Shown here one piece after another: positions 18,409 through 46,082 of a DNA stretch of 64,000 nucleotides. A program made the position numbers and the translations under genes. Position 1 is the stretch's first letter; every line of letters starts with the position of its first letter. Where the stretch lies: the IMG/VR virus record IMGVR_UViG_3300021387_001066, positions 12,373 to 76,372 of that record; one strand, 5' to 3'. The notes beneath the pieces were generated by a model. It did not search any database and was not told where the DNA came from. It saw nothing but the letters and a program-made list of their open reading frames with translations. This DNA is from a virus. Lineage: Duplodnaviria; Caudoviricetes.

Positions 18409-21400
18409 ATGGTATATCCCAAGTGCTACATAGTTAATAAGAATATAGATGGTTATCTTGCTTCTAAATTTGGCTGGAAGGCTGAAATGGGAAGTAAAGG
18501 ATTGAATCCAATGAAGATTGCTTCTCTTAGAGGTCTTTATGATCAGGCTGCAGAAGAGAATAAAACAGCAGAACTTCTTCCTGATAACCCTACACAGGCA
18601 GATCTTGATGAAGCCTTTGAGAAACTGAAGAAATTCAGAGCAGGCATTAGAGAAGTGCATAGAGCTAAGATGTCTAAGGGAACAAGACGTATTGACAGAG
18701 CCTATGATGCTTTAAGACATGCGTATTCACTACATGAAAGAAAGAGTAGAATCAGTCTTCTGTCTAACTTGTTCTCCTCTGAGGTAGATAGGCTTATGGA
18801 AGGAGGCAAAGCTGATAGGCAAAGCTTTGTCAATGGTTTCGCTGCTTCTGATGGTAAATATTATGGAGGTGAGTTCTCTATTTTGGAAGGTGTCTATAAC
18901 AACATACACCAGATTAGGGCTAATTACTATAGGCACATGAGGAATCCTGAAGAAGGCTTCAAAGCCTATCAGAAAAATAAGAAGCTTGATTTCCAAGGTG
19001 CTCCTACTAATGCTCAGGAATTTAAGGAAATGTGTGAGCATAGGTTCAATGAATACACTAAGATTCTTGAGAATTGGAATGAGCTTGTTCCTTTTGTACT
19101 AAAAGACCTGGTAAAAAAGGAAGGGGTGAAGTTGGGTATTAAAACTGAATATGCTGCAGTAGCTTCTTCTGATAACTTTGGAGACAATGACATTGCTGCC
19201 AAGTGGGATTTATCTGAGTCTAAGCGTGATGGATGGCAGGAAAACTCAGACCTTCAGAGTGCATTTGGTTCTGTTGGTCAACAAGTCAGAAGAATCCTTG
19301 CTACGGTTCCTCAGATTGAAAGTATTCCACAATATGTAGAAAAGACAGACGGACTTGGCAATAAGGTTACAGTCTATGCTGGTTTAAAGCAGGTTCCTGT
19401 AGTAGATGACCTGGGTAATCCTCAGTTCATGGATGCTACAAAGACTCATCAGGCTCTTATGGAATATCTGAAAGGTGTTCAGGATTCTGAAGATATGATG
19501 AGAAGGCTCTGTAGAGACGGTGAACTTGGAAAAGGTGTAGCTAAAATTCCTTGGATGCAACCTATTGTAGATGTTCTTATGAGTAATCCTCAGGCTAGAA
19601 CCCAATTCTTCTGTGACTTCAAGAAGAACTTCCAGCCATATTCTATAATGTGGGAAGAAGAAAGTGAGAACAGCTTTATAAAGAAGTGGAAGACAAAGAT
19701 ACTTAATAAGCCTGCTAACATGCTTAAAGGTAAGTATGAAATGCTGATGTCTTCTAAAGGTAACTTTCCTATTAACGTAAAAATGTGGGGGTACACGCCT
19801 GTCTTTGATGAAGTCACTAAGGAAATTAATTGGCAAAGACTTGCAGAACTTAGAAAGACTGTTTTAGCTTGGACTCATGAAGAAATAGCTCCTGTAGAAA
19901 ATGAACAGGCAGGAGATATCCGTACTCAACAGCCAAGATATGCTTCTTCTACAGCTGCTCCTCTTATTAACACAGGAACTAATACCTTTATTACTATAAA
20001 CGGTAAGTCTCAAAGGGTTACTGCTGATCTTAGAAGAGATTTTCTTACAGAAGTGTTTACATCTCTTGGATATGATGTTACAATGGATGCCATTGACAGT
20101 ATCATTCACTCAAGAGATATCTATACTGTAAGGGAACAGTTAGAACAACTCTTTAATCCTGATAATCAATATACTGGTTTTCTCTATGCTGCTGGTGTAC
20201 AGACTCTTGGAGATACCAATGTTAGGAAGCTTCAAGAAAAACACATGAAATTCAGAAGTTTGTACAGCACAAGTAAGGGAGAAAACGGTCAGCCTGTGAA
20301 AGAACATTCAGAAAAACTGCTTGATATTATAAGCAAACATCAAGAAGGATATAGGGTAGAGTCAAGAGCTAGATACCAAGGTAATACAATGTATTCCTTT
20401 GTAGCACCTTCTTATCTTGGTGACAGGTTAGAGACTATCCAGAACTTTGTAGAAGCTGACAATAAAGAAGGACTTCTGCAGTTCTTGAAAGAGGAATATC
20501 TTAATAGTCCATTCTTTGTTGATGATGAATATCTGTCAACTGAAGGTAAGTCTGGCAAAATTCTTAATACTTGGCTTGCTGATATTGTAGAGGCTTGTAA
20601 GGATAATAAAACTCCGCTTCAAGAATCTGTAGCTGCTATCTTTAACTATGAGAGAGATCTTGGTAGAGAGGATAAGAAGTTTGAGGACTTTACAGCTAGA
20701 GAGCATGGTGTAGATATGCTGATTCACTTCTTTGCTGATGAACAGCAGAAGAAAGGTTATGGAGGCAAGGGAACAAGAGATATAAATAAGAAGCTCTCTG
20801 CCATGTATCCAGTGTTTATTCTTGGTGATGCTGGTGTGAGTAAGTATATTAGGGCTCCTAGAATATCTTCTGCAGTAAGGGTAAATAAAGAAGGGAATGT
20901 TCTTGATGAAGCTGATGCTAAGTATACTGCAAGAATTGAATACAGATTTGATGATGCAGCACAGGATAGAGTTCTCGAAGGTCTGTATAATATATATATG
21001 CAGGAAAGAAGAAGAATGGCTATTGATGAAGCTATGGCGTATAAGATGTATGCTAATGGCAAAGAAGTCAAGCATCCAAAAGGTGAGTTCTCCATTCTTA
21101 CTTTCCTAAATCCAGACTCTCAGGAATATAAGGAAGAATATGCCATTTCAGAAGATAAGAAGGATGACAAGGATACAGTTAAGGCTGCTATCCGTAAGTA
21201 CATGGATGATGCTACTAAGACATTCAAGGACAGACTGGATACCCTTGGTGTATTAGAGACAGCAAGTCAAGGTAAGAATCAGGTATATAAGAACATCAAT
21301 TCTATTGCTACTCCTGAGAACATTGATACCAAGATTCAGGAATTCTTCTGGAATACCAAACTAGCTACAGCCCAGCAGTTACAGCTGATGACCATTGATC

Positions 21401-24400
21401 CATCATTCTATCATGGTACTAAAGACCTTCAGAAGCGTTATAAGGAAATTCATGCTCCTGGTAATGTATTGGATTTGATGGCTAGAGACTTTGATGGCAA
21501 TCTCTATTCTCCAGATGGTATTGAAAGGGTTGTTTACTTCAGAGACCTTTCAATCAATGCTGAGCAATTCAACCCAGAGTTTATGGCAGTTGTCCTTAGG
21601 ACATTTGCACAAGAAGGGAAAGAGAAGGAGGTGGAGGAGGCCATTAAAGATGGTATTATTCAACCAAAATCAGGAGCAGAAGAAACAGCAAGACAGAATA
21701 GACTTGCTGACTTACTTGGCAATAACTATGGTATCTATAGGTCTTATACAGGTAATACTCTTACTGATGGTCAAGGATACAGGACTCTTACCTCTTATAG
21801 AAGGGTAAAAGGTATGGCTGGTCAATGGACTGAACAAATGGAGAATGCTTATAAGGCTATTATGCAGATAAGAAAGAATCATGAAGTCAGGGATGCATCG
21901 GGTAAAGTTGTTGACTATACTGAAGCAACTCCTGAGGAGCTTAAGCAGATTGCAAGCTTTGCCTTGGTTCTTCAGCCTATTAAGCCTTACTTGTTTACCC
22001 ATGAGAAGTATCCTATTGAGATTGCCAAGAAAGACAAGAATGGTAATGTTGTAAAAGGTGCTGACGGTAAGCCTGTAATGATTAAGACTTACAAGTACAT
22101 TCCTGTACAGCATAAGTATGCAGAAGCTCTTATTATTCCTGAATTAATGCCAAAGGGACACAAGCTTCGTGACTTAGGCTTCTGGATGGATAAGCATAAC
22201 ATTGATATGGTTGGCTCCGATAAGATTGCTAAGGTAGGTTGTTTTGGTCAGGCAGATTTAAGCAATATTGGGAATAAAACCAACCTTGAAACAGCTATGG
22301 GTGCTGGTTATATTCATGAATTGCCTTATAAGGACTATAGGATTCAGACTAATGTTCCAGAACATATCAATGCTTCTCAGCTCTTTGGTACTCAGGTAAG
22401 AAAACTTATTATGTCTGGACTTGATATGGATGGAGCTGCTCAGTTTTATGCTGACTTGCTTGGTATAGATCGTGTAAACCTCAGTACTTCTAAAGATGGC
22501 AATGACAACAATGCCAATGCATCACTTAACGGAAGAAACCTGTTGGCACTCTACAACTCACTTATTTGTGCTAATATCTTTGATTCTTACGATAAGTTTG
22601 CAAAAAATGCTGGAGATATACAAGAGCTTGCTAATCTTCTACAGCAGTCTACAGTAGGCTCTATGAGAGAAGCTATGGATAATCTGTTCTCTTATGTAGT
22701 TACAGGCAGTGAGGCAGACTTGCAGAAGTTCATGATTCCTTTGTTTGAAGGGGGCTTAGAGCATGATTCAGCAGCTTTGATACTTTCTACATTCAAGAAG
22801 ATTGTAAACAAGCAACAGATATCTGGTGGTTCTGCAGTACAGGTAAGTGCCTTTGGTATCAATGGGTATGATGAAGACGGTGGTCTGAGGTTTGTTACAG
22901 ACCAAGACAACAATAAGAATATCCTATATGCTGAGATTGAGATGCCTTTCGATAAGTCCTTCATGGTAGATGTAAGGAATGCTGATGGCTCTGTCACTAA
23001 ACAGCCTGTAAGTCTTGACTATGACAAGTATTGCAATATGGATGGTACCTTGATTCCTACAGGAGAAGCCTTAAAGAAAGGCACTAAGGAATGGAAGAAG
23101 TATCAATCCTATACTTATAAGAAAGTAGATGGCAAGCTTATTCCTTGTAGGCATGATGACCCTCAGGCAGAAGTCTATAAGCCACTTATTGAAGCTGAGT
23201 ATCCTGATATACTTAGTATTCTTGCTTATCGTATTCCTACTGAGAGGGATTACTCTATGATTAACTGTCAGATTAAGAGGTTTACATCTAAGGTTGCTGG
23301 TGGTACAATTAAGGTTCCACCACAGGGCACTACTATTGCAGGTTTTGACTTTGATATTGATAAGTTGTATTTCATGCAGCGTGAATATCATAAGCACTAC
23401 AAGAATGAAGCTTATGTAGAAAGTAATTTCTCAGAGTCAGATGTATATGCTGTTTGGAACGCTATCTATCAGAATAATCCAGAAATCAGTGCTGCCCTTG
23501 ACAATGCTCAAAGTGAAGCAATGACAAGAGATCCTGAGAATCATACAAGAACCTTGAAGAGTGGTAGAATTCTTCCTAAGAATCCTAAACATTCATACTG
23601 GGAAGATGCTAAGATTGAAGAGAAGTTCGGTAAGAAAAAAGGTGAACTCTTTGCGGATGCTGCTAAGCAAATAGGTGTCAAACCTGTTACTAAGGATAAT
23701 AGTGAAACTGTAGAGTGGTTAGAAGAATACGATTTCAATAAAGCTCCTGAGGAGAATACAAGGGCTGCAAGGAACAATCTTCTCATTACTCTTATTCAGG
23801 CTAGATTGATGGATCCTCAGACTGTCAAGCAGCGTTATACTCCTGGTGGATTTGACAATGCTTCCAAAGCAGCAAGAATGATGAGGGAACTCTTTCATGG
23901 AGATTTGGAACATGTAAAAGCTGCTATTCAAAATGATACGCTTGATACTGTAGCAAATGGAAGAAAGGACCCAGAGCCAAATTATGATCCTACTGACCCA
24001 TATACCATATTGATATATAATCAGCAGAATCAGGTAGCAGGTAAGCTTATTGGTATCTTCGCTAATCAGAATACCAATCATGCCTTTGCCTCAGCTATGG
24101 ATGAGTTTGAGCTTTATGAGCCTATATCATTTGCAGGACACTCTTTCAGGGACTTGCTTCATAAGAATTCTGAAGATGCAGCACAGATAGACCTTAATAT
24201 GGCTGAGTTCCTTGCAGCTTCTGTAGATGCTGTGAAGGACCCTGTACTTAACTTCCTTAATCTGAATACTATTACTGCTGATGCAGGTGCATTGCTTGCA
24301 AGAATTGGCTATAATACCAAGGAGATAGGTCTGCTATTTAATCAACCTATTATTCGTAAGATATGTGTAGACTCTTTTAATAATGGCAGTAACATTAACT

Positions 24401-26844
24401 CAGTAATTGACGATGCTAAGAAGATGCTTCTTGGATATCTTACAGGCATTAATGTCCATAACAAGGTAAACATTGGCATAAATGATTTAGCTCTTGGTAT
24501 TGTAAATGAGCGTGAAATGCTTGAGAATGGCAAGACTCAAGATGATTTCTTTAAGGATAACGCAAGAATGCAGTATGCTGTACTTGAATTATTCAGCAAT
24601 ATTCTTAAGGCATCCAGTGATGTATCTGACTTTATACTTAATACCAAGTTTACTGCATCAAACGCTGTAAGTTCTAGTTTTGGCGGAATGTATGCCCAGC
24701 AGATGAGAGTAAGCACTTATGTAGACAAATTCCCAAAAACTGAAAAGGATAAAGGCTTTCTTAGCTATAAGGTGACTGTTGTTAAAGGTGCTCAGCAAGT
24801 AGGACTTATGAGTAAGCCTATTGACAATAGTGATGGTTTGATATTACAGCCAGGTGAGAAGATTTCTGACTACAAGAAAAGGTATCTGCATTATGTAAGA
24901 TTCAATCCATTTGCCTATGAGCAAGCTATGTATGATGCCAATAGAAATGCTATCAAGCTTTTGTCAAGATATTATCCTTATGAGACTAAAATGTATACTG
25001 AGGTCAGGGATAGAATGAACAGACTATCATGGTTTGGTACACTTTCTGAAGACGATATCAATGATATCCATAGTAATATTCCAGTAGCTTTGCTTGCACG
25101 TCAGGAGCATTCAGACTTTAATGGTGAAGCAGAGCATATTAAGGAAGATGGAACCAGAACAGGTATGACCAACAGAGACTACTATAGAAACAAGTTTGCA
25201 GAGGACTTGATGGGAATGCTTGCTGCAGATCCAGATGTCTTGGGTAAACTTGAGATATTCAAGTATCTTAGTCCTGAGTCTGTTGAAGTGGCTACTAAGG
25301 ATGAAAATGGCCTTGAAATAAAGACTGAAGCATGGAGAATACAGATGCAGGACATAGGTGGTATGGATGCTGATGTCAAAGAAGCTATTCGTGAAAGTTG
25401 GGCATACCTTATGGAAGTACAGGATGATGGTTACTTTGACAATCAGGATTATGCTGAACTTGGAAGGGATCTCTTCATGTATTGTTTCTATCAGCTTGGC
25501 TTTGATTTCAGTCCTCTGTCATTCATGCATCTTGCTCCTACGGCAGTAAAGGATAACATTATTGTACAGAGAAGTAACAGCCTTCCATTGAAGGATTGGT
25601 CAGCTGACGGAGGTAACATTTTACCTGATACTGATGATGTTCTTGTATGGTCAGCCAATGTACCAGGTAGCTTTGAGAAAGCTTCAGAATTTGGTGCAGA
25701 TAGGTCTGTTATAGGCAGAATCAGTGGTGATGCTTATCAGCTTCCAGAAAAGTTAGATCAGTATGCAGATATCCAAGATTTGATACATGAGGCTAAGAGC
25801 CATCCAGAACTGAAGTTCAAGATTGACAGAGACCTTACCAGAGAGGAATTCCAGATGTTTGTGGACCTTAAGGAGGATGTTCCTGCTAATATCTACTTCT
25901 CTTCTCAAACTCTTGAGAATGCAGGTGATTTGAAGAGTAAGTTGTCTTATGGCAAGAGCAGGACTTATAGACAGTTCCTTTATGAAATACTTGATGAGAC
26001 AGGCAGTCAGCTAAATGTTGAGGAATTTGCCCAGATGTTTATTCTTAACCATTTGGATAATGCAAGGTATGTTCTTGATATTAGCAAAAGTAATAAGAGA
26101 CTTAGGGAAATTGTTAAAGAGCAGGCTGGACAATTAAAGGATGGCTTTAAGTTTAAGGATAGAATTACCATAGATATCAGTAAGTACACCAATGACCAAG
26201 ATGCTGAGTCCCTAAAGAATCTTGTAAAGGTAAAAATGCAAGATAATACTATTACTCAAATAGAGTGGAGGCCGTGTATTGTCATTGATGGTTCTTACTA
26301 TATGGCAGAAAGCAATACTGATTTGGGCTTTAATATTACAGGAAAGGGCACTGCAAAAATTTCTTACCGTAAGGTAGTGCCTTGGGGTTCTTCTAAGACT
26401 ATTAGATATGATGGTAATGAAGAGCTTAAGCCTACAATGAGATATCAGGCTTCTATGAATGCCATACCTCAGATAGCTCCTATTGTTAAACAGCCTCAGG
26501 CTCCTGTACAGCAGGCTCCTTCTACTCCAGAAGCTCCTCAGGACAATGTCCCAACAGGAGACAATGGAGCACCTGAACCTGTTGTAGAGCAGAGTAATGG
26601 TAGTGCTACTGGTATTGATGCCATGAGACAGCTTGCTGAAGATTATATTTTCAAAGAGATGGTAAATGCCATAGAAGCTAAGTTTGGTCCAATGTTGGCA
26701 GAAGACAAACAAGGTATGAGAGATACATTGTCTAAAAGCAGTATGCAAGACCTTAATGATACTGTAGCTACTATCAGAAAGGCTTGTAGGGAGAATGGGG
26801 TCATGATGCTTGATGACAATGGTAATCCTATGATGGGATGTTAA
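18409..26844 (+). CDS. giant virion-packaged single-chain two-barrel RNA polymerase (crAss-like)
   Basis: Catalytic DxDxD motif GFDFDIDKL at 23347-23364, preceded by AYRIPTE; 2811 aa; adjacent to other cargo genes. Confidence 0.92.
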   Translation: MVYPKCYIVNKNIDGYLASKFGWKAEMGSKGLNPMKIASLRGLYDQAAEENKTAELLPDNPTQADLDEAFEKLKKFRAGIREVHRAKMSKGTRRIDRAYDALRHAYSLHERKSRISLLSNLFSSEVDRLMEGGKADRQSFVNGFAASDGKYYGGEFSILEGVYNNIHQIRANYYRHMRNPEEGFKAYQKNKKLDFQGAPTNAQEFKEMCEHRFNEYTKILENWNELVPFVLKDLVKKEGVKLGIKTEYAAVASSDNFGDNDIAAKWDLSESKRDGWQENSDLQSAFGSVGQQVRRILATVPQIESIPQYVEKTDGLGNKVTVYAGLKQVPVVDDLGNPQFMDATKTHQALMEYLKGVQDSEDMMRRLCRDGELGKGVAKIPWMQPIVDVLMSNPQARTQFFCDFKKNFQPYSIMWEEESENSFIKKWKTKILNKPANMLKGKYEMLMSSKGNFPINVKMWGYTPVFDEVTKEINWQRLAELRKTVLAWTHEEIAPVENEQAGDIRTQQPRYASSTAAPLINTGTNTFITINGKSQRVTADLRRDFLTEVFTSLGYDVTMDAIDSIIHSRDIYTVREQLEQLFNPDNQYTGFLYAAGVQTLGDTNVRKLQEKHMKFRSLYSTSKGENGQPVKEHSEKLLDIISKHQEGYRVESRARYQGNTMYSFVAPSYLGDRLETIQNFVEADNKEGLLQFLKEEYLNSPFFVDDEYLSTEGKSGKILNTWLADIVEACKDNKTPLQESVAAIFNYERDLGREDKKFEDFTAREHGVDMLIHFFADEQQKKGYGGKGTRDINKKLSAMYPVFILGDAGVSKYIRAPRISSAVRVNKEGNVLDEADAKYTARIEYRFDDAAQDRVLEGLYNIYMQERRRMAIDEAMAYKMYANGKEVKHPKGEFSILTFLNPDSQEYKEEYAISEDKKDDKDTVKAAIRKYMDDATKTFKDRLDTLGVLETASQGKNQVYKNINSIATPENIDTKIQEFFWNTKLATAQQLQLMTIDPSFYHGTKDLQKRYKEIHAPGNVLDLMARDFDGNLYSPDGIERVVYFRDLSINAEQFNPEFMAVVLRTFAQEGKEKEVEEAIKDGIIQPKSGAEETARQNRLADLLGNNYGIYRSYTGNTLTDGQGYRTLTSYRRVKGMAGQWTEQMENAYKAIMQIRKNHEVRDASGKVVDYTEATPEELKQIASFALVLQPIKPYLFTHEKYPIEIAKKDKNGNVVKGADGKPVMIKTYKYIPVQHKYAEALIIPELMPKGHKLRDLGFWMDKHNIDMVGSDKIAKVGCFGQADLSNIGNKTNLETAMGAGYIHELPYKDYRIQTNVPEHINASQLFGTQVRKLIMSGLDMDGAAQFYADLLGIDRVNLSTSKDGNDNNANASLNGRNLLALYNSLICANIFDSYDKFAKNAGDIQELANLLQQSTVGSMREAMDNLFSYVVTGSEADLQKFMIPLFEGGLEHDSAALILSTFKKIVNKQQISGGSAVQVSAFGINGYDEDGGLRFVTDQDNNKNILYAEIEMPFDKSFMVDVRNADGSVTKQPVSLDYDKYCNMDGTLIPTGEALKKGTKEWKKYQSYTYKKVDGKLIPCRHDDPQAEVYKPLIEAEYPDILSILAYRIPTERDYSMINCQIKRFTSKVAGGTIKVPPQGTTIAGFDFDIDKLYFMQREYHKHYKNEAYVESNFSESDVYAVWNAIYQNNPEISAALDNAQSEAMTRDPENHTRTLKSGRILPKNPKHSYWEDAKIEEKFGKKKGELFADAAKQIGVKPVTKDNSETVEWLEEYDFNKAPEENTRAARNNLLITLIQARLMDPQTVKQRYTPGGFDNASKAARMMRELFHGDLEHVKAAIQNDTLDTVANGRKDPEPNYDPTDPYTILIYNQQNQVAGKLIGIFANQNTNHAFASAMDEFELYEPISFAGHSFRDLLHKNSEDAAQIDLNMAEFLAASVDAVKDPVLNFLNLNTITADAGALLARIGYNTKEIGLLFNQPIIRKICVDSFNNGSNINSVIDDAKKMLLGYLTGINVHNKVNIGINDLALGIVNEREMLENGKTQDDFFKDNARMQYAVLELFSNILKASSDVSDFILNTKFTASNAVSSSFGGMYAQQMRVSTYVDKFPKTEKDKGFLSYKVTVVKGAQQVGLMSKPIDNSDGLILQPGEKISDYKKRYLHYVRFNPFAYEQAMYDANRNAIKLLSRYYPYETKMYTEVRDRMNRLSWFGTLSEDDINDIHSNIPVALLARQEHSDFNGEAEHIKEDGTRTGMTNRDYYRNKFAEDLMGMLAADPDVLGKLEIFKYLSPESVEVATKDENGLEIKTEAWRIQMQDIGGMDADVKEAIRESWAYLMEVQDDGYFDNQDYAELGRDLFMYCFYQLGFDFSPLSFMHLAPTAVKDNIIVQRSNSLPLKDWSADGGNILPDTDDVLVWSANVPGSFEKASEFGADRSVIGRISGDAYQLPEKLDQYADIQDLIHEAKSHPELKFKIDRDLTREEFQMFVDLKEDVPANIYFSSQTLENAGDLKSKLSYGKSRTYRQFLYEILDETGSQLNVEEFAQMFILNHLDNARYVLDISKSNKRLREIVKEQAGQLKDGFKFKDRITIDISKYTNDQDAESLKNLVKVKMQDNTITQIEWRPCIVIDGSYYMAESNTDLGFNITGKGTAKISYRKVVPWGSSKTIRYDGNEELKPTMRYQASMNAIPQIAPIVKQPQAPVQQAPSTPEAPQDNVPTGDNGAPEPVVEQSNGSATGIDAMRQLAEDYIFKEMVNAIEAKFGPMLAEDKQGMRDTLSKSSMQDLNDTVATIRKACRENGVMMLDDNGNPMMGC

Positions 26845-26870
26845 TTAGGTAATGTTTAAATATTAGGATA

Positions 26871-29800
26871 ATGAGTAAGTCGTGTACAATACTTGCACAT
26901 GTTAGAAGGCCTAATGGAGAAGTAGTGGAAAGCAGGTTATTCAATGACCTGCTCCACTATACTTCTGACAATAGGGAGTTAACTAAAGAGTACTATGGAG
27001 TTGGAACCAGTGAGGACTTTCTTTCCCAAGTAAGGGATTCTGATGAATTCCAGGTAGATGAGAATGGAGAAATCACACTCAAGTCCCTAAGAACTTTGGC
27101 TAAGTTGGATTTGGATACTGACAAGCTTTTGCAGGTACTTAACAAAGATATCAGGGAAGGAGAATATGATTATGAGGAAGCTGTCCGTAAGATAGAGGAT
27201 TTCAATAATAACAATGAATTCTCTGACAAGGTGATAGCAACTATCTTTCCTACTGCTTCTAATAAGTACTATGTGACAGTGGTTCCTATAAAGAAATCAG
27301 TAATTAACTCAGAGGGGAAGAAGGAGGATGAGAGAGTAGAGGTTAATGAGAAAAAGAAACTCCACGATGTAGTTCATAATAAAGAGGTTGAAAAGAGAAT
27401 AATCAATCTTTTAAGACAGCATCAAGTGTCTGTTAAGTTCCTAGAAGGTAACAAGGAAGGGGGCAGGTATTCTACAGAGAATGCCACTAGGACACAGGAT
27501 GGGCTCTATGCTCTCATAGAACTAAGTAAAGGCGGATATACAACAGATGTGCTTGCTGAAGAAGCAGGTCACTTTGCTGTAGGTGCGCTTGGTGATAATC
27601 CTTTGGTTAAAAGACTTCAGGATCTTCTTGGAGATCCATCTGTCCAAAGAGAAGCATTAGGTGATGAAGAATTTGAGAATTCTCAGCTTGGTACTAATCC
27701 TGCAAGGGAAGTAGCTGGTAAGCTAGTAGGAAAGGCCCTGCAGAGAAAACTTGATAATGCAGGGATGGTGAAAACATTGGCAAACAGAATAGCAAATTTT
27801 GTCAAGAGAGTCTTCTATGCTTTCTCTGGTAATGAGGTAAGATGGGCTGCTGCTAAGGCTGAACAGGCTGCTAATAGAATTGCCTATCAATTTGTTGAAG
27901 GTGACAACAGCTTCTCTGTTGACAATGCTATCAGTATCAGTGAAGTCATGAATAATGCCACGTTAAGTGTTAATCAAAAAGTCTATAAGGATACTGTAGA
28001 TGAATTAGGTAGAATGGTCAAGCAGCTTGAGGCAATAGCACAAGACCAGTTTACTGGTCAAATGCAGGCATCTCTGGCTATGTCAGTACTGTCTGGTACT
28101 GATGAGAACACTGGTGTATCAGCCTTACAAATGAATAAGACAGACCTTACTGCAAATTCCTTGGCCTTTGATGGTATAGTTCAGGCATTGGTTCAGGTTA
28201 CAGATTACCTTGGTCCTGATAAGGAAATAGACCAACTTATGAAGGCTGTAGATTTGGATAATGTATCTGATTTCTACGCTAACATGGCAAGGAATGGAAG
28301 ATACCTTAGGCAAGCTAGAACATTCCTTAGAAGTGCTGAGATTATTATCAGTACAATAGAAGCTGCTTTGAACTCAAATAATCTTGCAGGTTCATTGGTA
28401 CTTGCAAATGGCTCTACCATTACTGATGTAAGATATCAGGATGAGAATGGTACTTGGAAGAGCATTAATTTGAAGAATACTATTCCTGCTTATAAAAATA
28501 TCATTGCTAAAGCTGTAAGTGAACTGTCAAGTCTTGAAAGTAACTACTTTGCAAGATTCTGTGAAGATATTTATGGTAGTAAGTATATTACCTCCACAGT
28601 AGGTAAGACATGGCAAGATATCTGGCACGGACAAAAAGCTTTTGGAGAGAGCACTCAAAGTATTGCTGACATGGTGCTTGGTGTAGGTATGGAAGATATT
28701 GATGTATTCCACAGATACTTAGGCTCTATGGCTAATAATCCTGATATCATAGGACAAATAGCAGATAAACTTGTAAAGACTGCTAATAAGACCGCAGACG
28801 ATCTTGCTATCAAATATAAAGACAGACTTCTTATACTACAAGAAAGAGCTAGAAAGCTTGGTTTAAATACAGCTGACTTGCTAGAAAAAGATGAAAACGG
28901 TGTACCTACAGGTAACATGATTACTCCTCCTGCAGCTCCTACTAGCGAGGGAAATAGGGAAGAGGATGCTATTTGTCAGGCCTATATGTCTGAACTTGAG
29001 ACAGACAATCCTAATGATGTTCCTGCTGTTCAATATGGTAGATGGGAAAAGGAAAGAGATGAATTCCTTAAGCAGCTTTGGGAAGACTTTAAGGAAGAAA
29101 ATCCTGATTGGCAGTCTATGTCTGGATTTACCAGAGGTTATAAGTGGGATGCTTATAAACGTCCAAAATATAAAGATTGGAATAAGGAGCATAGTATTAA
29201 GGTAGAAGTCAAGAATCCTGATACAAACGAAATACTGTATGTAAAATGGATTCCTAATCTTACCTATCAGACTGATGCGTGGGACAATCTAAGGTCAAAG
29301 TATCCTTCAAAGAATGGTGATTCCATTGACAAGTGGATGTATGACTACAGGCAGATTAAGGAGGAACTTGACAGGATGCTTCCTGTAGGTGCCACTAATT
29401 CCTATAGGCTTCCTCAGTTCAGGGGAACCTTCATGAATTCTGTAAGGCAAAGTGCTATATTGGAGAAAGGCCCATTGAAGAAAACCAATGCATGGAGGAA
29501 GACATTTGGCCGTAGAGTTATCCTTGAAATGTTTGGTGTTGAATCTGAGGAGACAGATTATGGTGATATGACAACTATGAACTCTCCAGAAGAGGAACTA
29601 CTTGGAACAAAGCTGAATTATGAGGAGGAAAGAGCTGCAAGGATTCCTGTATTTGGTGTCAACAAGCTTAAGAACTTGCTTGACCTTGACTCTGATATCA
29701 TTGGTTCTACTATAGCTTATGCTTCTATGGCCACTTCCTATTTAAGTTTAGACAGTGTTGTAGATGGTCTTGAGGTTGGCGCTGAAGCTTTATTCAACAG

Positions 29801-31787
29801 AAAGATTGAAGGTAAGGAAACTGCCTATGAAAAAGGCAGGAAAAAGCTCGGTAATGCTTTTAGAAAGGCAACAGGCAGACATGAATCAAGAGCTACAGGT
29901 GCTAAGAACAGAGCCTATGGAAGATACTTGAAATTCCTTGAGAAGCAGGTGTATGGAGTTAGTGCTACTTACTGGGGTATTCCTATTGGTAAAGGTAAAA
30001 GAATCCTTCTCAATAAGGTTATCCAGAATATATCATCACTTGGAGGCTCATTATTCCTTAAGGGTAATTTGCTTGGTGGTGCTGTGAATACTTTTACTGG
30101 TGTGTTCAACATATCTAAAGAGGCGTTAGTTGGAGCTCATTTTAATGCTGAAGATTTAACTTTTGCAAATAGTTACTATTTTAAGCATTTTCCAGAAATG
30201 TGGACATCTGATTTAGGAAGACCTGATAAGCATAATAAGCTTAGCCTGTTTCTTGAACAGATGAATGCTTCCAGTGATAATAGGAATAAGTTCAGGAATT
30301 GGAAGACTTCACGCTCAAGAATAAATAACTTTTATAGAATGCTTGGTTATCTTCCTTATTCTTCAGGTGACCATTACATGCAGGCAATGTCCTATTTGGC
30401 TGTAGCACATGGTACAAACCTGTATGATATAGATGGTAAGAAGAGCAGTAACTTATGGGATGCTTATACCCGTGTGAAGAATGCTGATGAGAAAGGTGTT
30501 CAAAAGGGATACTCGTTGGAATTTTCAAGAGCTATTCCTCTGGATGCAAAGGATATTACTACTGAACTTTTAGATAAGCAAGGAGTATACCTTAAGACAG
30601 CTACAAGGAAAACTGCAGACTTTGAAGACTGGCTTGTAACACAAGATGCAAGGTTTGCTGATGAGGGATATAGAGACAGTCATGTTACTGACTACAATAA
30701 TTATAAGGATAAGTTCAGGTCACTTTCTGATGAAGCCCTCATGAAGTATAGGTCCAGTCAGTATAAGAGCTTGGCAGATATCCTTCAAAAGACAGAGGCT
30801 TACTTAGATTCAGGTGGTCTTCTGACTGCTGTTCCTTCATTCTCACATGAGGAGTTGGCATACCTTGCAAGCAGAGGTGTAGGTACAGGTAACTATGCAG
30901 ACATCCTTCAGACTGTAAGGAATGATATATACAATCTTATATGGACTAAAGCTGATGAGTCTTCTTATATGGATAAATGTCGTGAGACTAATAACAGACT
31001 GCATGGTATCTATAATGAACAGGACAAGACTGCATGGCATCAACAGTGGTATACCAATGCATTCCTTGCTATGAAGGGTTGGGCACTGGGTTATTTGGAG
31101 ATGATGTATTCAAATAATCATTACAGTATAGCACTTGATAGGAATGTAGAAGGTTTTGTAAATACTGCAGCTAAGATTCATGCATCATGGATTAAGGGAA
31201 TGTTTGGTGGAGGAGATGAACTTAGCTTCTGGGATATGCTTATCAGTATGCTTGCTCCTTGGTCTGAGAGGTCTAAGAGAGCAATGCATGATGCAGGATT
31301 CTCTGATGAACAGAATATGAATGCCCGAAGAATGGCAGTATCTGTGTTCTTGATGCTCTTGCTTTATGGACTCAGGCTTGCTACTGCACCTCCAGACAAG
31401 GATGATGATGAAGAGGCTGATGTAGCTACAGGTCTTATACATTACTTTGCTATGAGAACTCTGTATGAACAGGAAGCCTTATTATGGTTGCCAGAAACCT
31501 TTACCCAATCAGGACAGTTACTTGACTTTAAGCCCGTGGGTTTCAGCGCATTATACGATATCGGTAAACTTGCTTATGAAGGAGTAGGAGCAGTAGTTGC
31601 TCCAGAAACTGATAAGGATTTCTATTGGCAGAGAAGTGACAAGAATGGTAGATATGAAGCTGGAGAAACCAAGTTCAGAAGCCATTTAGAAAGGCTTATT
31701 CCTTATTGGAAAAATGTTTGGGCAATCCAGAATCCATATAAGGCTACTGAAAACTATGAGTTTGGAAGGAAATTAACTACGAGGTAA
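26871..31787 (+). CDS. large virion cargo protein with zincin-like (EExxH) domain and C-terminal hydrophobic segment
   Basis: LAEEAGHF...NPAREVAGKL; C-terminal MAVSVFLMLLLYGL; 1638 aa; directly after the RNAP gene. Confidence 0.75.
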   Translation: MSKSCTILAHVRRPNGEVVESRLFNDLLHYTSDNRELTKEYYGVGTSEDFLSQVRDSDEFQVDENGEITLKSLRTLAKLDLDTDKLLQVLNKDIREGEYDYEEAVRKIEDFNNNNEFSDKVIATIFPTASNKYYVTVVPIKKSVINSEGKKEDERVEVNEKKKLHDVVHNKEVEKRIINLLRQHQVSVKFLEGNKEGGRYSTENATRTQDGLYALIELSKGGYTTDVLAEEAGHFAVGALGDNPLVKRLQDLLGDPSVQREALGDEEFENSQLGTNPAREVAGKLVGKALQRKLDNAGMVKTLANRIANFVKRVFYAFSGNEVRWAAAKAEQAANRIAYQFVEGDNSFSVDNAISISEVMNNATLSVNQKVYKDTVDELGRMVKQLEAIAQDQFTGQMQASLAMSVLSGTDENTGVSALQMNKTDLTANSLAFDGIVQALVQVTDYLGPDKEIDQLMKAVDLDNVSDFYANMARNGRYLRQARTFLRSAEIIISTIEAALNSNNLAGSLVLANGSTITDVRYQDENGTWKSINLKNTIPAYKNIIAKAVSELSSLESNYFARFCEDIYGSKYITSTVGKTWQDIWHGQKAFGESTQSIADMVLGVGMEDIDVFHRYLGSMANNPDIIGQIADKLVKTANKTADDLAIKYKDRLLILQERARKLGLNTADLLEKDENGVPTGNMITPPAAPTSEGNREEDAICQAYMSELETDNPNDVPAVQYGRWEKERDEFLKQLWEDFKEENPDWQSMSGFTRGYKWDAYKRPKYKDWNKEHSIKVEVKNPDTNEILYVKWIPNLTYQTDAWDNLRSKYPSKNGDSIDKWMYDYRQIKEELDRMLPVGATNSYRLPQFRGTFMNSVRQSAILEKGPLKKTNAWRKTFGRRVILEMFGVESEETDYGDMTTMNSPEEELLGTKLNYEEERAARIPVFGVNKLKNLLDLDSDIIGSTIAYASMATSYLSLDSVVDGLEVGAEALFNRKIEGKETAYEKGRKKLGNAFRKATGRHESRATGAKNRAYGRYLKFLEKQVYGVSATYWGIPIGKGKRILLNKVIQNISSLGGSLFLKGNLLGGAVNTFTGVFNISKEALVGAHFNAEDLTFANSYYFKHFPEMWTSDLGRPDKHNKLSLFLEQMNASSDNRNKFRNWKTSRSRINNFYRMLGYLPYSSGDHYMQAMSYLAVAHGTNLYDIDGKKSSNLWDAYTRVKNADEKGVQKGYSLEFSRAIPLDAKDITTELLDKQGVYLKTATRKTADFEDWLVTQDARFADEGYRDSHVTDYNNYKDKFRSLSDEALMKYRSSQYKSLADILQKTEAYLDSGGLLTAVPSFSHEELAYLASRGVGTGNYADILQTVRNDIYNLIWTKADESSYMDKCRETNNRLHGIYNEQDKTAWHQQWYTNAFLAMKGWALGYLEMMYSNNHYSIALDRNVEGFVNTAAKIHASWIKGMFGGGDELSFWDMLISMLAPWSERSKRAMHDAGFSDEQNMNARRMAVSVFLMLLLYGLRLATAPPDKDDDEEADVATGLIHYFAMRTLYEQEALLWLPETFTQSGQLLDFKPVGFSALYDIGKLAYEGVGAVVAPETDKDFYWQRSDKNGRYEAGETKFRSHLERLIPYWKNVWAIQNPYKATENYEFGRKLTTR

Positions 31788-31813
31788 CACTTGTATATGT
31801 AATGTTAATTGTT

Positions 31814-31852
31814 GGGGGAGGAGAGAGCTTATCTCTTCTCCCTTTCTTTTTT
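31814..31852 (+). terminator. Rho-independent terminator at the convergence of the two transcription directions
   Basis: GGGAGGAGAGA / TCTCTTCTCCC stem followed by a T-tract. Confidence 0.75.
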
Positions 31853-32598
31853 CAAGTATCTTTAGTGAAATATATACCTATAGCTGCAAGACCTATAACA
31901 ATTAATATACCTACAAAAGCCATACCAGCTCCTACATGTTCTGAAGTATCCATGAGTCCTAAGGCAGATAAAGCTATAGCCATTACTATGAAAGTAGCAC
32001 ACCCTATACCAACCTTAACGCTTGTTTTCATTTGAGTTTTACCCTCATTTTTTGAGTATGGATCATCTACAATGTCTAATTTGTTTATTTCTGCAATACA
32101 GTTTTGAAAGTTATTCCAGTATATTTGAACAGGACGAGTAGAAGGTATTTGAGGAAACCAGTACGGATAATGTTCTATACCAGGAGGAAGAAGGTGCATT
32201 ATCTCATAATCTATGGAAAAGTGATTGTACTTTTTTCTGAAGTTTCCAGAAGGAATTCCATACACATCAAGTATAATAAGATAAAAAGTATTTTCCTCTA
32301 TTATCCATTCATAATGTTGAGGTAGTCCTAGTATCTTCAGTATTTTGTTTAAGGAGTTTTGGGCGTAGTATTTGTTTTCATCCTTATCTACATATAAAGA
32401 GACAATTCCATTCTTACCTGTTATAAGGTCAATACCTTTAGCAGATTCCCAGTCATAGGTTTCAAACTCTTTGTCATAGTCCTGAGCCTTCATGTTTCTC
32501 CAATACAGCCAACTTTTTCTTTCTCTATAGTCTGTATAAGGGCATACCCATACTTTCTTGCTTTTATAAAATTCTGCCCATTCTCTTAAAGTATTCAT
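31852..32598 (-). CDS. stand-alone membrane-anchored protein; N-terminus resembles a degenerate primase-polymerase (Prim-Pol) domain
   Basis: WAEFY..KVWVCP...W...GIDLITGKNGIVSLYVD; two C-terminal hydrophobic helices; has its own promoter. Confidence 0.6.
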   Translation of the reverse strand: MNTLREWAEFYKSKKVWVCPYTDYRERKSWLYWRNMKAQDYDKEFETYDWESAKGIDLITGKNGIVSLYVDKDENKYYAQNSLNKILKILGLPQHYEWIIEENTFYLIILDVYGIPSGNFRKKYNHFSIDYEIMHLLPPGIEHYPYWFPQIPSTRPVQIYWNNFQNCIAEINKLDIVDDPYSKNEGKTQMKTSVKVGIGCATFIVMAIALSALGLMDTSEHVGAGMAFVGILIVIGLAAIGIYFTKDT

Positions 32599-32622
32599 AA
32601 TTGATAATTATTAAGATGTATA

Positions 32623-32630
32623 CAAACATA
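32623..32630 (-). promoter_or_regulatory. Bacteroidota -7 promoter element (TATGTTTG)
   Basis: CAAACATA on the + strand, 25 nt upstream of the 32598 ATG. Confidence 0.65.
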
Positions 32631-32632
32631 CA

Positions 32633-32670
32633 AAAAGTATAGCTAGGAATAGTTACCCAGCTATACTTTT
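32633..32670 (-). terminator. terminator of the 2729-aa gene (potentially bidirectional)
   Basis: AAAAGTATAGCT / AGCTATACTTTT perfect inverted repeat with A/T tracts on both sides. Confidence 0.8.
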
Positions 32671-32695
32671 AACAAAAATTTAACCTTAGAATTAG

Positions 32696-35600
32696 TTATA
32701 ATAGACCTCTACATTTCATTTGCTCTTCTAATAATAACACATCATCTGGGCTACTAAGCATCTCGTTATATTGATCCATATTAGATACGCCCCATTCATT
32801 CTGCAAATATCCCTTAGCTGCATTACTAAGTTTCTCCCATGCAGGAAGAATAGCAGTTTGTCCATTTGGAACAACAAGTGGAGGAGTAGGAATGAAGTCC
32901 TTGAAGTCATCCAAGCCTATACTACCATCATCTACAAATGCAGGAGATATTCTCTTAGAAGTTTCAATCTCTGCAGCCTGTGGTGCAGCAGAATCTCCTG
33001 AAGGTGCTTCAACAGTCAGTGCTGTCATAATATCCTGGTCTTCACTGCTAAGATTATCCCAGCCAATATTAAACGGTGTATAACCTGGTTGGAATTGATT
33101 CTTAAGAGCAGTACCCTTCATCTTAGGATTGGAAGCTGTAAAGCTTGTCAGGTTATTTGACTGAACTATTACATTTGGATTTTTAACTATATACTCATTG
33201 TTATCTGTCTGTAATGTTCCTTTATCTAATACAATTACGTCAGCTTTAGAGTTTTTACCATTCTTGATATAATCTCTAATATCTTTGTAATGTTTAACCT
33301 TAGCGTTAGCTGCAATGTGGTATTGGCTAACTTTTGCATAATCTCCTGTATAATGTCTGTTTAGAGGTCTTCCTTGTGGGTTTTCCTGTGTTGGTGGTTC
33401 TGGAGATTTATCAGTTCTTGCATTTGCATAGTCTTGTGCTTCTTCTTTACTACTTGTGAAATACAAAGCACCTTTAAGTGAATCATCATAATCAACAGCA
33501 GTATGTCCGATTGTTTCTTGTATTGAGGTTGCTTCTCTGTTTTCAGTTAACGCATACCCTCTATACATCACAACAGGCTTACCGTTTTCTTTGTATAATC
33601 CTTTGCTAGTTATCTGAAGCTGCCCATTTGCAGTCTCTGAGTACTCAGGTCCCATTGGATCTAAACCATTGTCTCTACTGCCTCTTGGAGTAGGATAGTC
33701 AACTTCAATAGGAATGATTCTAAGATTCTTAGGGTCAACCTCTACACCATAGGATTGCTTGAGCAAGTCAGCATACATGCTTATCTGTCTTGACCATTTA
33801 GCCTTTTCAGAAGTAAGCTTAGCAGTACTGTGGTCTCGCACAGTCTTCATATCAAAGATATAGAAGTTACCGTCGTCATCATAGCCAAACAAGTCAAGTG
33901 TTCCTGCAACCTTCACATCATGTGTGGTACCATCAGCACCAGTCATAGTAATATTACCATGAGCCATGATACCTTCAGATACTACATGAATACCTCTACT
34001 GTCTAGATCATTCTTAAATAGCTCAAGCTCGTGTACAAAAGCTTGAAGAGCTTCCTTAGTGATATTAGGATAACTATCTTTTATATGACCTGCAAGGAAA
34101 TCTCTTGTAATAACGTCTACAGTATTACCTATAGAAGTTGAAGGAGTACCCCATGCACCATACTTTTCCTGCTTATGTTGAGTCCTAAGTTCTGCAACAG
34201 CTCTTCTGATATCTGCAGTAGAAACCTTTAAATCAGCACTCATTTGGTCAATGCTCTTATATGCAGCCAGCTGTTCAGGAGTGCGGTCTTCAAGATTATG
34301 TTTACCTCTTAGCTTATCGTAGATTTCCTGTGTGCTAGGAGTCCAGATATATTGTTTAACCCTTCTCCTCTTAGCTTCAGCTTCAGTAAGTTCAGGGAGG
34401 CTCTTGTCTGCACCTATCACAGTAGTTACCCTAAGATACTTAGTACGTTCTCCAGTAGTGTTGTCTGTGATGTAATAGTAAGTTTCATCCTCAGACAAGG
34501 TGAACTGCTTGGAGTCTGAGATAATCTTTTGTGTAATTTCCTTAGCTCTCTTCAGCTTGTCACTTTCCTTTCTTTCAGGTTGCTTGGTGTCATCAAGCTT
34601 TGCACCACTGTCAGGGTCTACCTGAGCACCATCCTTTGTAACTACAGCTCCATCACCCTGAGGAGTTACATTTTGAGGAGCAGACGGTTTGGCATTTGAA
34701 GGATTAACAACTGTATCATAAGGATAGACAATTCTTGTATAACCTTGATCATTTACAGCAACAGGTGCCTGTAGCTCTACACCATCTACATCATAGATAA
34801 GAGAACTGCCAGCAATAGTAAGAATACCATCATCTACAATATCAGCATAATTCCTTCTTGCCCTGCCTGCTTTAGTAGTATCAGGATTAAGAAGATTCTG
34901 TACATCTGACTTAGGTGTCTGCCATACCAGGAAACTCCTTATACTGTTAGTCTGAGAATCCCACATGATATTCCTAAGCAATTCCATAGCACCATCTGTA
35001 TCTCTTTGACCTGCGTTGATTTCTCCAAGTGGAATAGGTGCTATTGAAGCAGAATCTGGGTCACTTGCATTGTAGTTACTGTTTACAAAGAATACCTTAT
35101 ACACAGTCTTCGATGAAGCAGCATCATCACCTGCAACTTGTGATGCTTGTGGAGCAGTTACTTGTATACGCCAGTTAGCATCAGTTATATAGATGAAATC
35201 ATTGATACCTCTAAGGCCCTTGGTGTCGTCAGTCTTATTGAAACCATTTAGCATCTTGGTCAATCTTTCAACTTCTTCCTGATAGATATTAGGATTGGCT
35301 TCAAGGTCCTGCCTAGTAATCAACATGGCTTCTCTGTTCTGTTCTTTCTTTAATGGAAGGAACTGGAAGAGAGGTCTGATTACCTCATCATAGAGTCTTT
35401 GTGTTCTGCTATTAAATGAAGCTACCTCTTCACCTGTACCACTTTCCAATACTTCAGGCAATAGTTTACCAGATGTTCTTCCAGTAGTCTTATCCATGTC
35501 TTTCCTGAATACCATCATAGGATTTCCTTTTTCACCAGACCTATGGTTTTCAGGTGTGAACAGTATCCTGTCTTTCATAGGGCCATCCTGTGCATCAGAA

Positions 35601-40896: not shown

Positions 40897-42405
40897 TTAA
40901 TGCACTGCAATCAAATAACCTTTTTTCTTACTATCCTTCTCGTTAGGAACTTCTATAAGCTGAATGTCAAGATTCAATGCAGCATCACTGTTAGGGTCTA
41001 CACCCATCTTCTCAAGATAACTGCTTACTTGAGCATTGAAAGCTTCCAGTAATTCAGGATTCTGTGAAAGCAATCTTGTTACATCATCAGAAGACAACAC
41101 TCTCATATCAGGACTATCACTGCCTTCAGCAGAGAAGTTACCCCACTTACTCTCTACATTGGAAGAGGATTGGAATCCCCAACCATGTCCTGGTACATCA
41201 TCTCCAATAGCACCATATCTCCATTTACCCCTACTGTTTGTCAAGGCACCTATATAATCATAGTGATGTCTGTTATCGCCGAATGTAACATCAAATCCTT
41301 CATTATGTGCTAAATCAGCCTTCTTAAGCTTCATAAGCTCTGTACCCTTAGCCTTAGCACTGCTGGCTTCTGCCTTCTCTATAGGAGACTGAGATGAAGT
41401 CTTTCTTCTCCACTTACCATCAGGAGTCAGCTCATAGTTATCCATGTTGGTATAGCTAGGATTGTATCCTATAACATTACCATCTTCATCATAGTTATAC
41501 CTGAGTTGTCTTTCAATATCTAAGTCTTTCTTTTCTTCGTCCCATTTTTCTTTGGCAATATTGGTATTAACCCAAGCTCTCGCAGAAGCATCTTGTTCAG
41601 CTCTGCTCATAACTCCAAGATCTCTTGTAGGATTGATATCTTCCTTATACACAGCACCATCAATTATACCATTGATGACTCCCTGCCTTGCCCTTTCAAG
41701 ATTATTACCTGTCAAGTTGCTATAAGCTCCAGTCTCTCTTAGAATATCATCTGCTGCCTGTTGGAGTTCTGGAATAGCAGAAGCGTTTGCTCTGAAAGCA
41801 TTTATGCTGTCAGCACTATAACCATTCTTCTCTCCCCACATTCTATAGTATCCTCCAAGTGTACTTCCTAAATCTCCAAAGTTATATATCCTTGAAGATG
41901 CAGCCTTACCAGCATTCTGACCTCTTGTATATAAATCATTACCACTAATGCCATAGAGGTTTGGAGTGTTGTTATCAAGATACATATCAATGTCCAGATT
42001 ATCCAGAGCATAAAGCATTGTTGGGTCTTTGATACTCATCTGCCTTCTGAGATCAATCTCTTTATCCAATCTAGTCTGTGCTTCATCAAGTCTTCCAATC
42101 TCCCCAGAGTATCTTCTTCTAAGATTAGACAGAGCCCTTCTGTTATTCATTGAAAGCCCATTGGTTGCCAAGTCAGCAGCCTGTGCATTAAGTTCATTGG
42201 CATATCCTTCATAGAGTTGCCTTGCCTTACTTCCTTCTGGAAGATTCTCTGAAAGATACTTGAACTTATCTGCCTTTGACGTTAAGTCAGTATAAGTTTC
42301 ATCAGCCTGTTCATAAGCCTCCTTGTATGCATTGAAAGGCACAAGCATTTCCTGCATACTAAATGGACGGAATGAATTATTTATGACGTAGCTATAATTT
42401 GGCAT
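40897..42405 (-). CDS. virion cargo protein (conserved position in crAss-like phages)
   Basis: 502 aa, Cys-free, N-terminal FRPFSMQEMLVP; lies between cargo genes. Confidence 0.65.
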   Translation of the reverse strand: MPNYSYVINNSFRPFSMQEMLVPFNAYKEAYEQADETYTDLTSKADKFKYLSENLPEGSKARQLYEGYANELNAQAADLATNGLSMNNRRALSNLRRRYSGEIGRLDEAQTRLDKEIDLRRQMSIKDPTMLYALDNLDIDMYLDNNTPNLYGISGNDLYTRGQNAGKAASSRIYNFGDLGSTLGGYYRMWGEKNGYSADSINAFRANASAIPELQQAADDILRETGAYSNLTGNNLERARQGVINGIIDGAVYKEDINPTRDLGVMSRAEQDASARAWVNTNIAKEKWDEEKKDLDIERQLRYNYDEDGNVIGYNPSYTNMDNYELTPDGKWRRKTSSQSPIEKAEASSAKAKGTELMKLKKADLAHNEGFDVTFGDNRHHYDYIGALTNSRGKWRYGAIGDDVPGHGWGFQSSSNVESKWGNFSAEGSDSPDMRVLSSDDVTRLLSQNPELLEAFNAQVSSYLEKMGVDPNSDAALNLDIQLIEVPNEKDSKKKGYLIAVH

Positions 42406-46057: not shown

Positions 46058-46074
46058 AAGAATATATTTATTCA

Positions 46075-46082
46075 CAAAAATA
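46075..46082 (-). promoter_or_regulatory. Bacteroidota -7 promoter element (TATTTTTG)
   Basis: CAAAAATA on the + strand, between the muzzle terminator and the cargo gene. Confidence 0.65.

Follow-up and report, generated by a model that had tools for sequence, protein, structure and literature searches.

Facing terminal cysteines in the giant RNA polymerase cargo proteins of Crassvirales suggest a head-to-tail disulfide tether

How do crassviruses, the most abundant phages of the human gut, deliver a giant RNA polymerase (RNAP) together with two giant partner proteins? The question is still open because the three proteins concerned, gp47, gp50 and gp49 of phage crAss001, gave no density in the crAss001 atlas. 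Here, positions 12,373 to 76,372 of the virus record IMGVR_UViG_3300021387_001066 were analysed. This stretch of 64,000 nucleotides, in the following called the window, comes from the genome of a crAss-like phage and carries the RNA polymerase cargo block with homologues of gp47, gp50 and gp49. Cysteines (Cys) were found at exactly those protein ends that would face each other in a chain of the three proteins, and we consider it likely that interchain disulfides tether them head to tail.

The proteins are referred to as gp47h (2729 amino acids (aa); 32696..40885, minus strand), RNAP (2811 aa; 18409..26844, plus strand) and gp49h (1638 aa; 26871..31787, plus strand), which would be the first, middle and last member of the proposed chain and are homologues of crAss001 gp47, of crAss001 gp50 and phi14:2 gp66, and of crAss001 gp49, respectively. 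Five large genes lie between 18.4 and 46.1 kb, these three among them, and they are arranged and oriented like crAss001 gp50, gp49, (small gene), gp47, gp46 and gp45, in synteny with crAss001 gp44-gp50; the block is flanked, as in crAss001, by the genes for cargo proteins 1 and 2 and for the muzzle (‘stabilization’) protein. The 2811-aa translation contains FDFDID, corresponding to the two-barrel RNAP catalytic motif DFDxD, and matched Steigviridae RNAPs in tblastn; profiles of the RNAP core gave matches in the different families. The 1638-aa protein matched gp49 homologues (tblastn; alignment A1), and gp47h aligned with crAss001 gp47 in two collinear blastp stretches (E 5e-13 and 3e-9); homology to the crAss001 cargo block was thus found for all three giant proteins. 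None of them gave a match in PHROGs or Pfam. In crAss001 virions all five cargo-block proteins were detected by mass spectrometry (MS) and placed in cargo zones (PMC10172136), and the GenBank notes of phi14:2 likewise record its cargo-block proteins in virions by MS.

When the Cys residues of the window proteins were counted, gp47h had a single one in 2729 aa, Cys2725, five residues from the C-terminus (codon TGT, 32711..32713, minus strand). RNAP had 15, including Cys6 near the N-terminus (codon TGC, 18424..18426, plus strand) and Cys2811, which is the last residue (codon TGT, 26839..26841, plus strand); the 13 others are internal. In gp49h four were present, at positions 5, 564, 702 and 1370, the first within the start MSKSC (codon TGT, 26883..26885, plus strand). 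The first-pass annotation had pointed to these four terminal codons, all of which indeed read Cys; its estimate of about four Cys in the 1638-aa protein proved to be exactly four, and the roughly 800 kDa of cargo that it proposed came to a summed mass of 809 kDa. In crAss001 the corresponding ends are ...ALRCNS for gp47, SKRC... at the start and ...DKICGANTLYEL at the end of gp50, and AKKC... at the start of gp49. The masses of the three crAss001 proteins are 262.5, 276.9 and 154.5 kDa, together about 690 kDa.

Conservation of these residues was followed across four families, Steigviridae, Intestiviridae, Crevaviridae and Suoliviridae, in about 190 related loci whose sequence identities went down to about 20%. 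The loci came from 25 annotated phage genomes, from IMG/VR contigs found with gp49h alignments, and from IMG/VR contigs found with the Intestiviridae gp47-type protein and with Suoliviridae gp49h. Counts refer to distinct sequences, and the last 10 residues of the gp47-type C-terminus and the first 8 residues of the RNAP N-terminus served as windows. Every free gp47-type C-terminus carried a Cys (83/83), 0-7 residues from the end, and so did every free RNAP C-terminus (59/59, 0-8 residues from the end) and every free gp49-type N-terminus (51/51). At free RNAP N-termini the residue was present in 72 of 73, at position 3-7; the lone exception is a fragment from the IAS virus record, which contains ambiguous bases, and the piece upstream of this fragment starts MSLYC. 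The outer ends behaved differently, with Cys in none of 50 gp47-type N-termini and none of 57 gp49-type C-termini, and in 200 other open reading frames (ORFs) of the same phages Cys occurred in the first 8 residues in 5% and in the last 10 residues in 11.5%. When the last 200 aa of 32 gp47h proteins (11-33% identity to the window) were aligned, the terminal Cys was the only invariant column, and in the gp49h alignment A1 Cys5 was one of about 60 invariant columns. Each of the four Crassvirales families sampled follows this pattern. The terminal Cys, for which the earlier annotation had suggested a conservation check across Crassvirales, are kept in all orthologues examined.

The rest of the cargo is poor in Cys. 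Their content in gp47h was 0.04% compared with 1.17% in the non-cargo ORFs of the window; the probability of at most one Cys in 2729 residues is about 4e-13, and the lone Cys of gp47h sits in the last 5 residues. Since gp47h is so depleted relative to the other ORFs of the window, and the terminal residues so conserved relative to a background of 5-12%, the pattern is not due to chance. In most lineages gp47h had the terminal Cys only, and gp49h often had the N-terminal Cys only. The marine phage phi14:2, for which an RNAP structure is available (PDB 6VR4), has exactly four Cys in 5398 residues, and these are the four junction Cys: gp47h (1797 aa) has one as its last residue, RNAP (2180 aa) has Cys3 and Cys2179, and gp49h (1421 aa) has Cys3. 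Locus L191 also has junction Cys only, at the three termini that it covers. Cargo protein 2 of the window (502 aa; 40897..42405, minus strand; crAss001 gp46 homologue, gp46h; Pfam PF25712 crAss_CARGO2, E 3e-51) was free of Cys, as were the eight Steigviridae homologues checked. Cargo protein 1 (1217 aa; 42422..46075, minus strand; crAss001 gp45 homologue, gp45h; Pfam PF25725 crAss_CARG1, E 5e-51) has one internal Cys, Cys501, and its homologues are Cys-free in several genera (cr128_1, cr85_1, IAS virus). Ejected proteins of N4-like phages avoid Cys, and transit of the oxidising periplasm was proposed as the reason (PMC11445570); the crass cargo shows a matching avoidance, the junction Cys excepted.

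If terminal Cys join consecutive proteins, what becomes of them where the genes are fused? In the window the three proteins are separate ORFs and not a fused polyprotein, with gp47h on the opposite strand and RNAP and gp49h separated by a stop plus 26 nucleotides and read in different frames. In some crass phages the three modules are fused into polyproteins (preprint 10.1101/2020.03.07.982082), and all fusions that we found keep the order gp47h, RNAP, gp49h. RNAP and gp49h share one ORF of 4070-4407 aa in Intestiviridae (LMMB, crAss002, ctbg_1 and about 70 IMG/VR loci) and in Crevaviridae (cr127_1). In every one of these lineages the gp47-type protein keeps its end Cys, usually as the second-last residue, and the fused protein starts M-x-C (MSC). 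When four such fused proteins were aligned, the N-terminal Cys was the only conserved Cys column, and in the cr127_1 protein no Cys occurs past residue 2015 of 4133. The other arrangement, gp47h and RNAP in one ORF, was found in four subfamilies of Suoliviridae and in the Steigviridae genus Pipoluvirus (cr108_1). In every one of these lineages the fused protein lacks an N-terminal Cys and keeps a Cys 0-4 residues from its C-terminus, and gp49h starts MQC, MIC, MFC or MAKGIC. A further locus, on a Suoliviridae-type IMG/VR contig of 195 kb (L175:2-13819, plus strand), has gp47h, RNAP and gp49h in one frame; an insert of about 200 aa with HEYAHH has taken the place of the tail of RNAP and of residues 1-109 of gp49h, and both junction Cys are gone. 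This is a single contig and may be either a natural triple fusion or an assembly chimera.

Modules were assigned by profile matches of the RNAP and gp49h cores together with hhalign of the N-terminal third of gp47h, which gave probabilities of 97% for Intestiviridae, 92% for cr108_1 and weaker values of 58-61% for Suoliviridae and Crevaviridae. A plain hidden Markov model (HMM) of Steigviridae gp47h found no homologue in the other families, which hhalign alone linked, and small HMMs built for each of the four terminal modules gave no match to counterparts inside the fused proteins. The fused junctions were accordingly placed roughly, from core-domain matches and from the absence of conserved Cys columns. 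Lineages with two proteins have two conserved terminal Cys, and therefore the unit is a Cys pair at the junction of separate polypeptides. The assignment of the pairs, the C-terminus of gp47h with the N-terminus of RNAP and the C-terminus of RNAP with the N-terminus of gp49h, is well supported by these sequence comparisons and by a structural precedent in another phage, described below. It agrees with the order from the 2729-aa protein through RNAP to the 1638-aa protein that had been proposed from the window, the fusions elsewhere and the Cys loss at fused junctions being what this order predicts.

The same data bear on the reading that the Cys are conserved without any bond between the proteins, for instance as a packaging tag, as a redox sensor that activates a self-inhibited RNAP, or for homotypic dimers. 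The RNAP of phi14:2, gp66, is self-inhibited, and how it becomes activated is an open question (bioRxiv 10.1101/2020.03.07.982082). A tag or homodimer Cys should persist internally after fusion, but the fused junctions have no conserved Cys column, and such roles give no reason for a distribution (C, then N and C, then N) that matches gene and fusion order. We regard this explanation as improbable.

In the disulfide reading, two interchain bonds would be present in the virion, gp47h Cys2725 with RNAP Cys6 and RNAP Cys2811 with gp49h Cys5, each of these Cys lying on a flexible end beside a small terminal module. The tether would be the reducible counterpart of the peptide bond in families with fused genes. 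It would keep about 0.8 MDa of cargo in fixed order and 1:1:1 stoichiometry through packaging and ejection, and would be cut by the reducing host cytoplasm. From the patterns described above we infer that crassviruses have this bond, that it would serve co-packaging and ejection in order, and that reduction would release the proteins; likewise, stoichiometric packaging and threading as one chain would follow from the tether. A precedent is given by cyanopodophage A4, where cryo-electron microscopy revealed a disulfide between gp27 Cys1715 and gp26 Cys5 in the packaged pre-ejectosome (PNAS 2025, PMC12002296). As encoded in the A-4L genome, the only Cys of gp27 (1717 aa) is that at 1715, three residues from the C-terminus, and the only Cys of gp26 (1114 aa) is that at position 5, in ‘MSKHC’. 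Intermolecular disulfides are also known from crAss001 virions, in the tail and in gp57 (PMC10172136).

Two further rivals share the idea that the terminal Cys hold something. Facing Cys might share a metal ion, in a Zn or Fe-S type bridge, and the three proteins would then be held non-covalently; a shared metal had also been named in the first-pass annotation. The pairing logic is identical to that of the disulfide, and a metal bridge could form in the reducing cytoplasm. However, the two-protein lineages with only two terminal Cys exclude a Cys4 site as the general unit, no further ligand is conserved near the four Cys (position -4 of the gp47h Cys is His in 18/51 and Gln in 11/51), and in A4 the matching signature is a disulfide. 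Likewise, the termini do not resemble a Rad50 zinc hook, having a single Cys each, no CxxC and no conserved His, Cys, Asp or Glu neighbour. A metal bridge thus appears quite unlikely to us. The disulfide is the simplest reading of the link because there is one Cys per terminus, no conserved nearby ligand and only two Cys in two-protein lineages.

Alternatively, each terminal Cys might bond another virion component (portal, inner face of the capsid or cargo protein 1) and thereby anchor the protein ends. Many intermolecular disulfides do occur among crAss001 tail proteins (PMC10172136), and paired loss on fusion would be automatic if a free end were required. Anchoring leaves unexplained why Cys occur at the four facing termini only and at neither outer terminus (0/50 and 0/57). 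It also has no universal partner among the cargo, with gp46h free of Cys and gp45h free of Cys in several genera, and the A4 precedent joins a protein to the next protein. Little probability remains for anchoring in our judgement.

The structural setting of the Cys was examined with AlphaFold2. In the last 200 aa of gp47h, residues 104-145 of the fragment were disordered (predicted local distance difference test (pLDDT) <50), forming a P/A/Q-rich linker of about 40 residues, and the last 50 aa formed a confident three-helix module (pLDDT 90-97), the final helix of which ends at the Cys. In the window this predicted module of about 50 aa, which bears Cys2725, covers 32699..32851 on the minus strand. 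The C-terminal module of RNAP, placed at 26593..26841 on the plus strand by a sequence alignment and by the model of locus L002, likewise follows a P/Q/A-rich linker; in L002, the sequence of which is 66-70% identical to the window, the C-terminal 83 aa were predicted as three helices and a beta-hairpin (D-x-x-G-N-x-h-C) ending in Cys. The first-pass annotation had placed both C-terminal Cys on small helical domains after long linkers, and the models agree with this, that of RNAP having been made on L002. In the models the Cys lie where small terminal modules end, and confidence is lower at the very ends. A read-through single chain of L002, consisting of the RNAP C-terminus, the intergenic codons and the gp49h N-terminus, gave a predicted TM score (pTM) of 0.64, and its Cys-bearing ends were less ordered than the adjacent modules. 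Basic residues, which could lower the thiol pKa, stood beside the junction Cys in only 40-60% of the sequences, and no claim is made from them.

At the other, Cys-free end of the proposed chain, the N-terminus of gp47h (40850-40885, minus strand, in the window), homologues carry a short (E)GLKGL or LRGL motif within their first 12 residues (MPDLRTLRGLKA, MEGLKGLKGL, MALEGLKGLTAQ). This motif might be a leading or docking signal.

Several points weigh against the disulfide tether. Support for a bond in crassviruses comes from sequence comparison and the A4 analogy, and Bayfield et al. saw no ordered density for gp47, gp50 and gp49 of crAss001. The window RNAP is not Cys-free, with its 13 further Cys, and virion assembly takes place in the reducing cytoplasm, which leaves the time and place of oxidation to be explained. 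The paired Cys loss is partly automatic, since with every fusion a C-terminus and an N-terminus disappear at once; paired loss alone thus leaves room for a Cys that needs a free end for another partner, and the fusions probably trace to few independent events, about 3-5. At some Intestiviridae loci the RNAP start was picked by the M-x-C motif despite an upstream in-frame ATG. Folding was done on single chains, and the pTM of the L002 construct carries no docking information. Finally, the A4 bond stabilises an ordered pentameric core and need not imply threading of a single chain (PMC12002296).

If the tether is real, a conserved end-to-end link would set the order and stoichiometry of the cargo, would account for the same three modules being separate in one family and fused in others, and would offer a simple activation switch, namely reduction in the cytoplasm. 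A bolder version, which we consider less likely than not, is a ‘redox-cleavable polyprotein’: a thread of about 0.8 MDa with 1:1:1 composition would be pulled in order through the tail and cut by host thiols, leading to release and activation of the polymerase. In function it would correspond to the peptide-bond fusions of other crass families and to the single-chain N4 virion RNA polymerase (vRNAP). In that case the signature, a lone C-terminal Cys with M-x(1-5)-C at the start of the protein that follows, would be a general and convergent marker for the order of ejection proteins in podophages, as crass phages and A4 share it without detectable homology. The signature may also be of use in identifying the ejection proteins of uncultured podophages and in establishing their order.

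Other roles for a Cys near a protein end were rejected. CaaX-like prenylation of the gp47h end (e.g. KCIAF) was ruled out by the Cys lying anywhere from 0 to 7 residues from the end; in addition, we know of no prenylation enzyme for CaaX in bacteria, which also counts against it. A lipoprotein Cys was ruled out because Cys3-7 is preceded by neither a signal peptide nor a lipobox. A gene-junction signal acting at the RNA level was ruled out as well, with the gp47h Cys kept in convergent or co-linear genes and both codons, TGT and TGC, used at the junction Cys sites.

The survey of the loci also yielded observations on the cargo genes themselves and on their neighbours. Between the convergent gp49h and gp47h genes the window has a 248-aa ORF with 3 Cys and no Pfam match (31852-32598, minus strand), where crAss001 carries a different small gene, gp48. 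Several Steigviridae gp45 homologues (L003-L008) have a conserved (K/R)GKFTxYCGGxVTxxC with two Cys eight residues apart, present twice in the DAC17 homologue; in the window gp45h (42422-46075, minus strand) the single Cys lies in ‘LCGGG’, immediately before the crAss_CARG1 domain. The two-Cys motif could form a disulfide loop within the protein or a small metal site. In Intestiviridae a further protein has just one Cys, near its C-terminus (..GGKQSCR, ..LFRCGGKKKIA; L083:2227-4812 (+), L085:2480-4153 (+)); it is encoded two genes upstream of the gp47-type one and measures 861 aa in LMMB, 557 aa in crAss002 and as much as 1304 aa in IMG/VR relatives, of which the one in L104 is without the Cys. 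The RNAP gene is interrupted just after the GSDFDK catalytic motif by an endonuclease-encoding segment in bajarodcaudo virus 1, cr116_1 and one IMG/VR contig (L008:5813-13996; L077; L092:11680-22545), which looks like a mobile intron at the RNAP active site. The giant cargo genes of cr52_1 and cr7_1 contain 26-148 in-frame stops under table 11 (L089:7570-25673; L091:5533-27704), fitting the stop-codon reassignment reported for some Suoliviridae. In several crass genomes the replication module, close to the cargo genes, includes a gene for a small thioredoxin- or glutaredoxin-like protein (L008:4832-5077; L009:3681-3926; L013:21978-22247; L087:28320-28589); the protein probably serves ribonucleotide reductase, though a part in virion disulfide formation is conceivable.

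Among known systems, one close to the window is the Crassvirales RNAP cargo block, with gp47/gp50/gp49 in crAss001 and gp078/gp077/gp076 in phi14:2 (gp67/gp66/gp65 in Drobysheva et al.); all three homologues are present in the window, with matching synteny beside cargo proteins 1 and 2. For this order, the literature that we found, which covers the field incompletely, makes no mention of terminal cysteines or of a covalent link among the three proteins. The first-pass annotation had considered such a joining of cargo proteins not described; this stands for Crassvirales, where nothing was found, but not for phages at large, one such bond having been published for A4 (PMC12002296).

A4 (A-4L, Saffermanviridae) also packs two consecutive giant ejection proteins in its capsid, and the Cys stand alike. 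Upstream, A4 gp27 with its single Cys is paralleled by gp47h with its sole Cys at 2725/2729, and by RNAP with its last-residue Cys, although the latter has 13 other internal Cys. Downstream, a Cys at about position 5 is shared with RNAP (Cys6) and gp49h (Cys5), and the gp26 start ‘MSKHC’ compares with MSKSC in the window gp49h and with MSKTC or MSKRC in its relatives. No hmmsearch match linked A4 gp26 and gp27 to the crass proteins, and hhalign probabilities were <=0.5%. A4 differs in having one junction and not two, and a chain without RNA polymerase. Its proteins form an ordered pentameric ring round the portal axis, whereas the crass cargo is without ordered density, and the A4 paper treats the bond as a stabilising detail, not as an order-wide conserved rule (PMC12002296). 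By this analogy the window appears to resemble A4 in its working, but it is not a member of the A4 family.

Schitoviridae such as N4 and DEV likewise pack and eject an RNA polymerase with accessory ejection proteins, and avoid Cys strongly. In N4 a single vRNAP chain comprises N-terminal domain, core and C-terminal domain, and how the three crass proteins relate to these is posed in the literature as an open question. The polymerase fold is unrelated to that of the crass RNAP, and N4-type proteins are free of Cys, have no terminal pairs and are linked by a peptide bond. The three giant proteins of the window, with 1, 15 and 4 Cys, are not of this type, only cargo protein 2 being entirely Cys-free. 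Outside phages, AB toxins such as diphtheria toxin and the clostridial neurotoxins have one interchain disulfide that joins two chains through unfolded translocation and is reduced in the target cytosol. This is a functional analogy only, the toxins being unrelated proteins that arise by nicking of one precursor, with no phage involved. Altogether, disulfide-tethered ejection proteins, in A4, and the crass cargo block were already known, and what is new here is the end-to-end Cys rule in Crassvirales.

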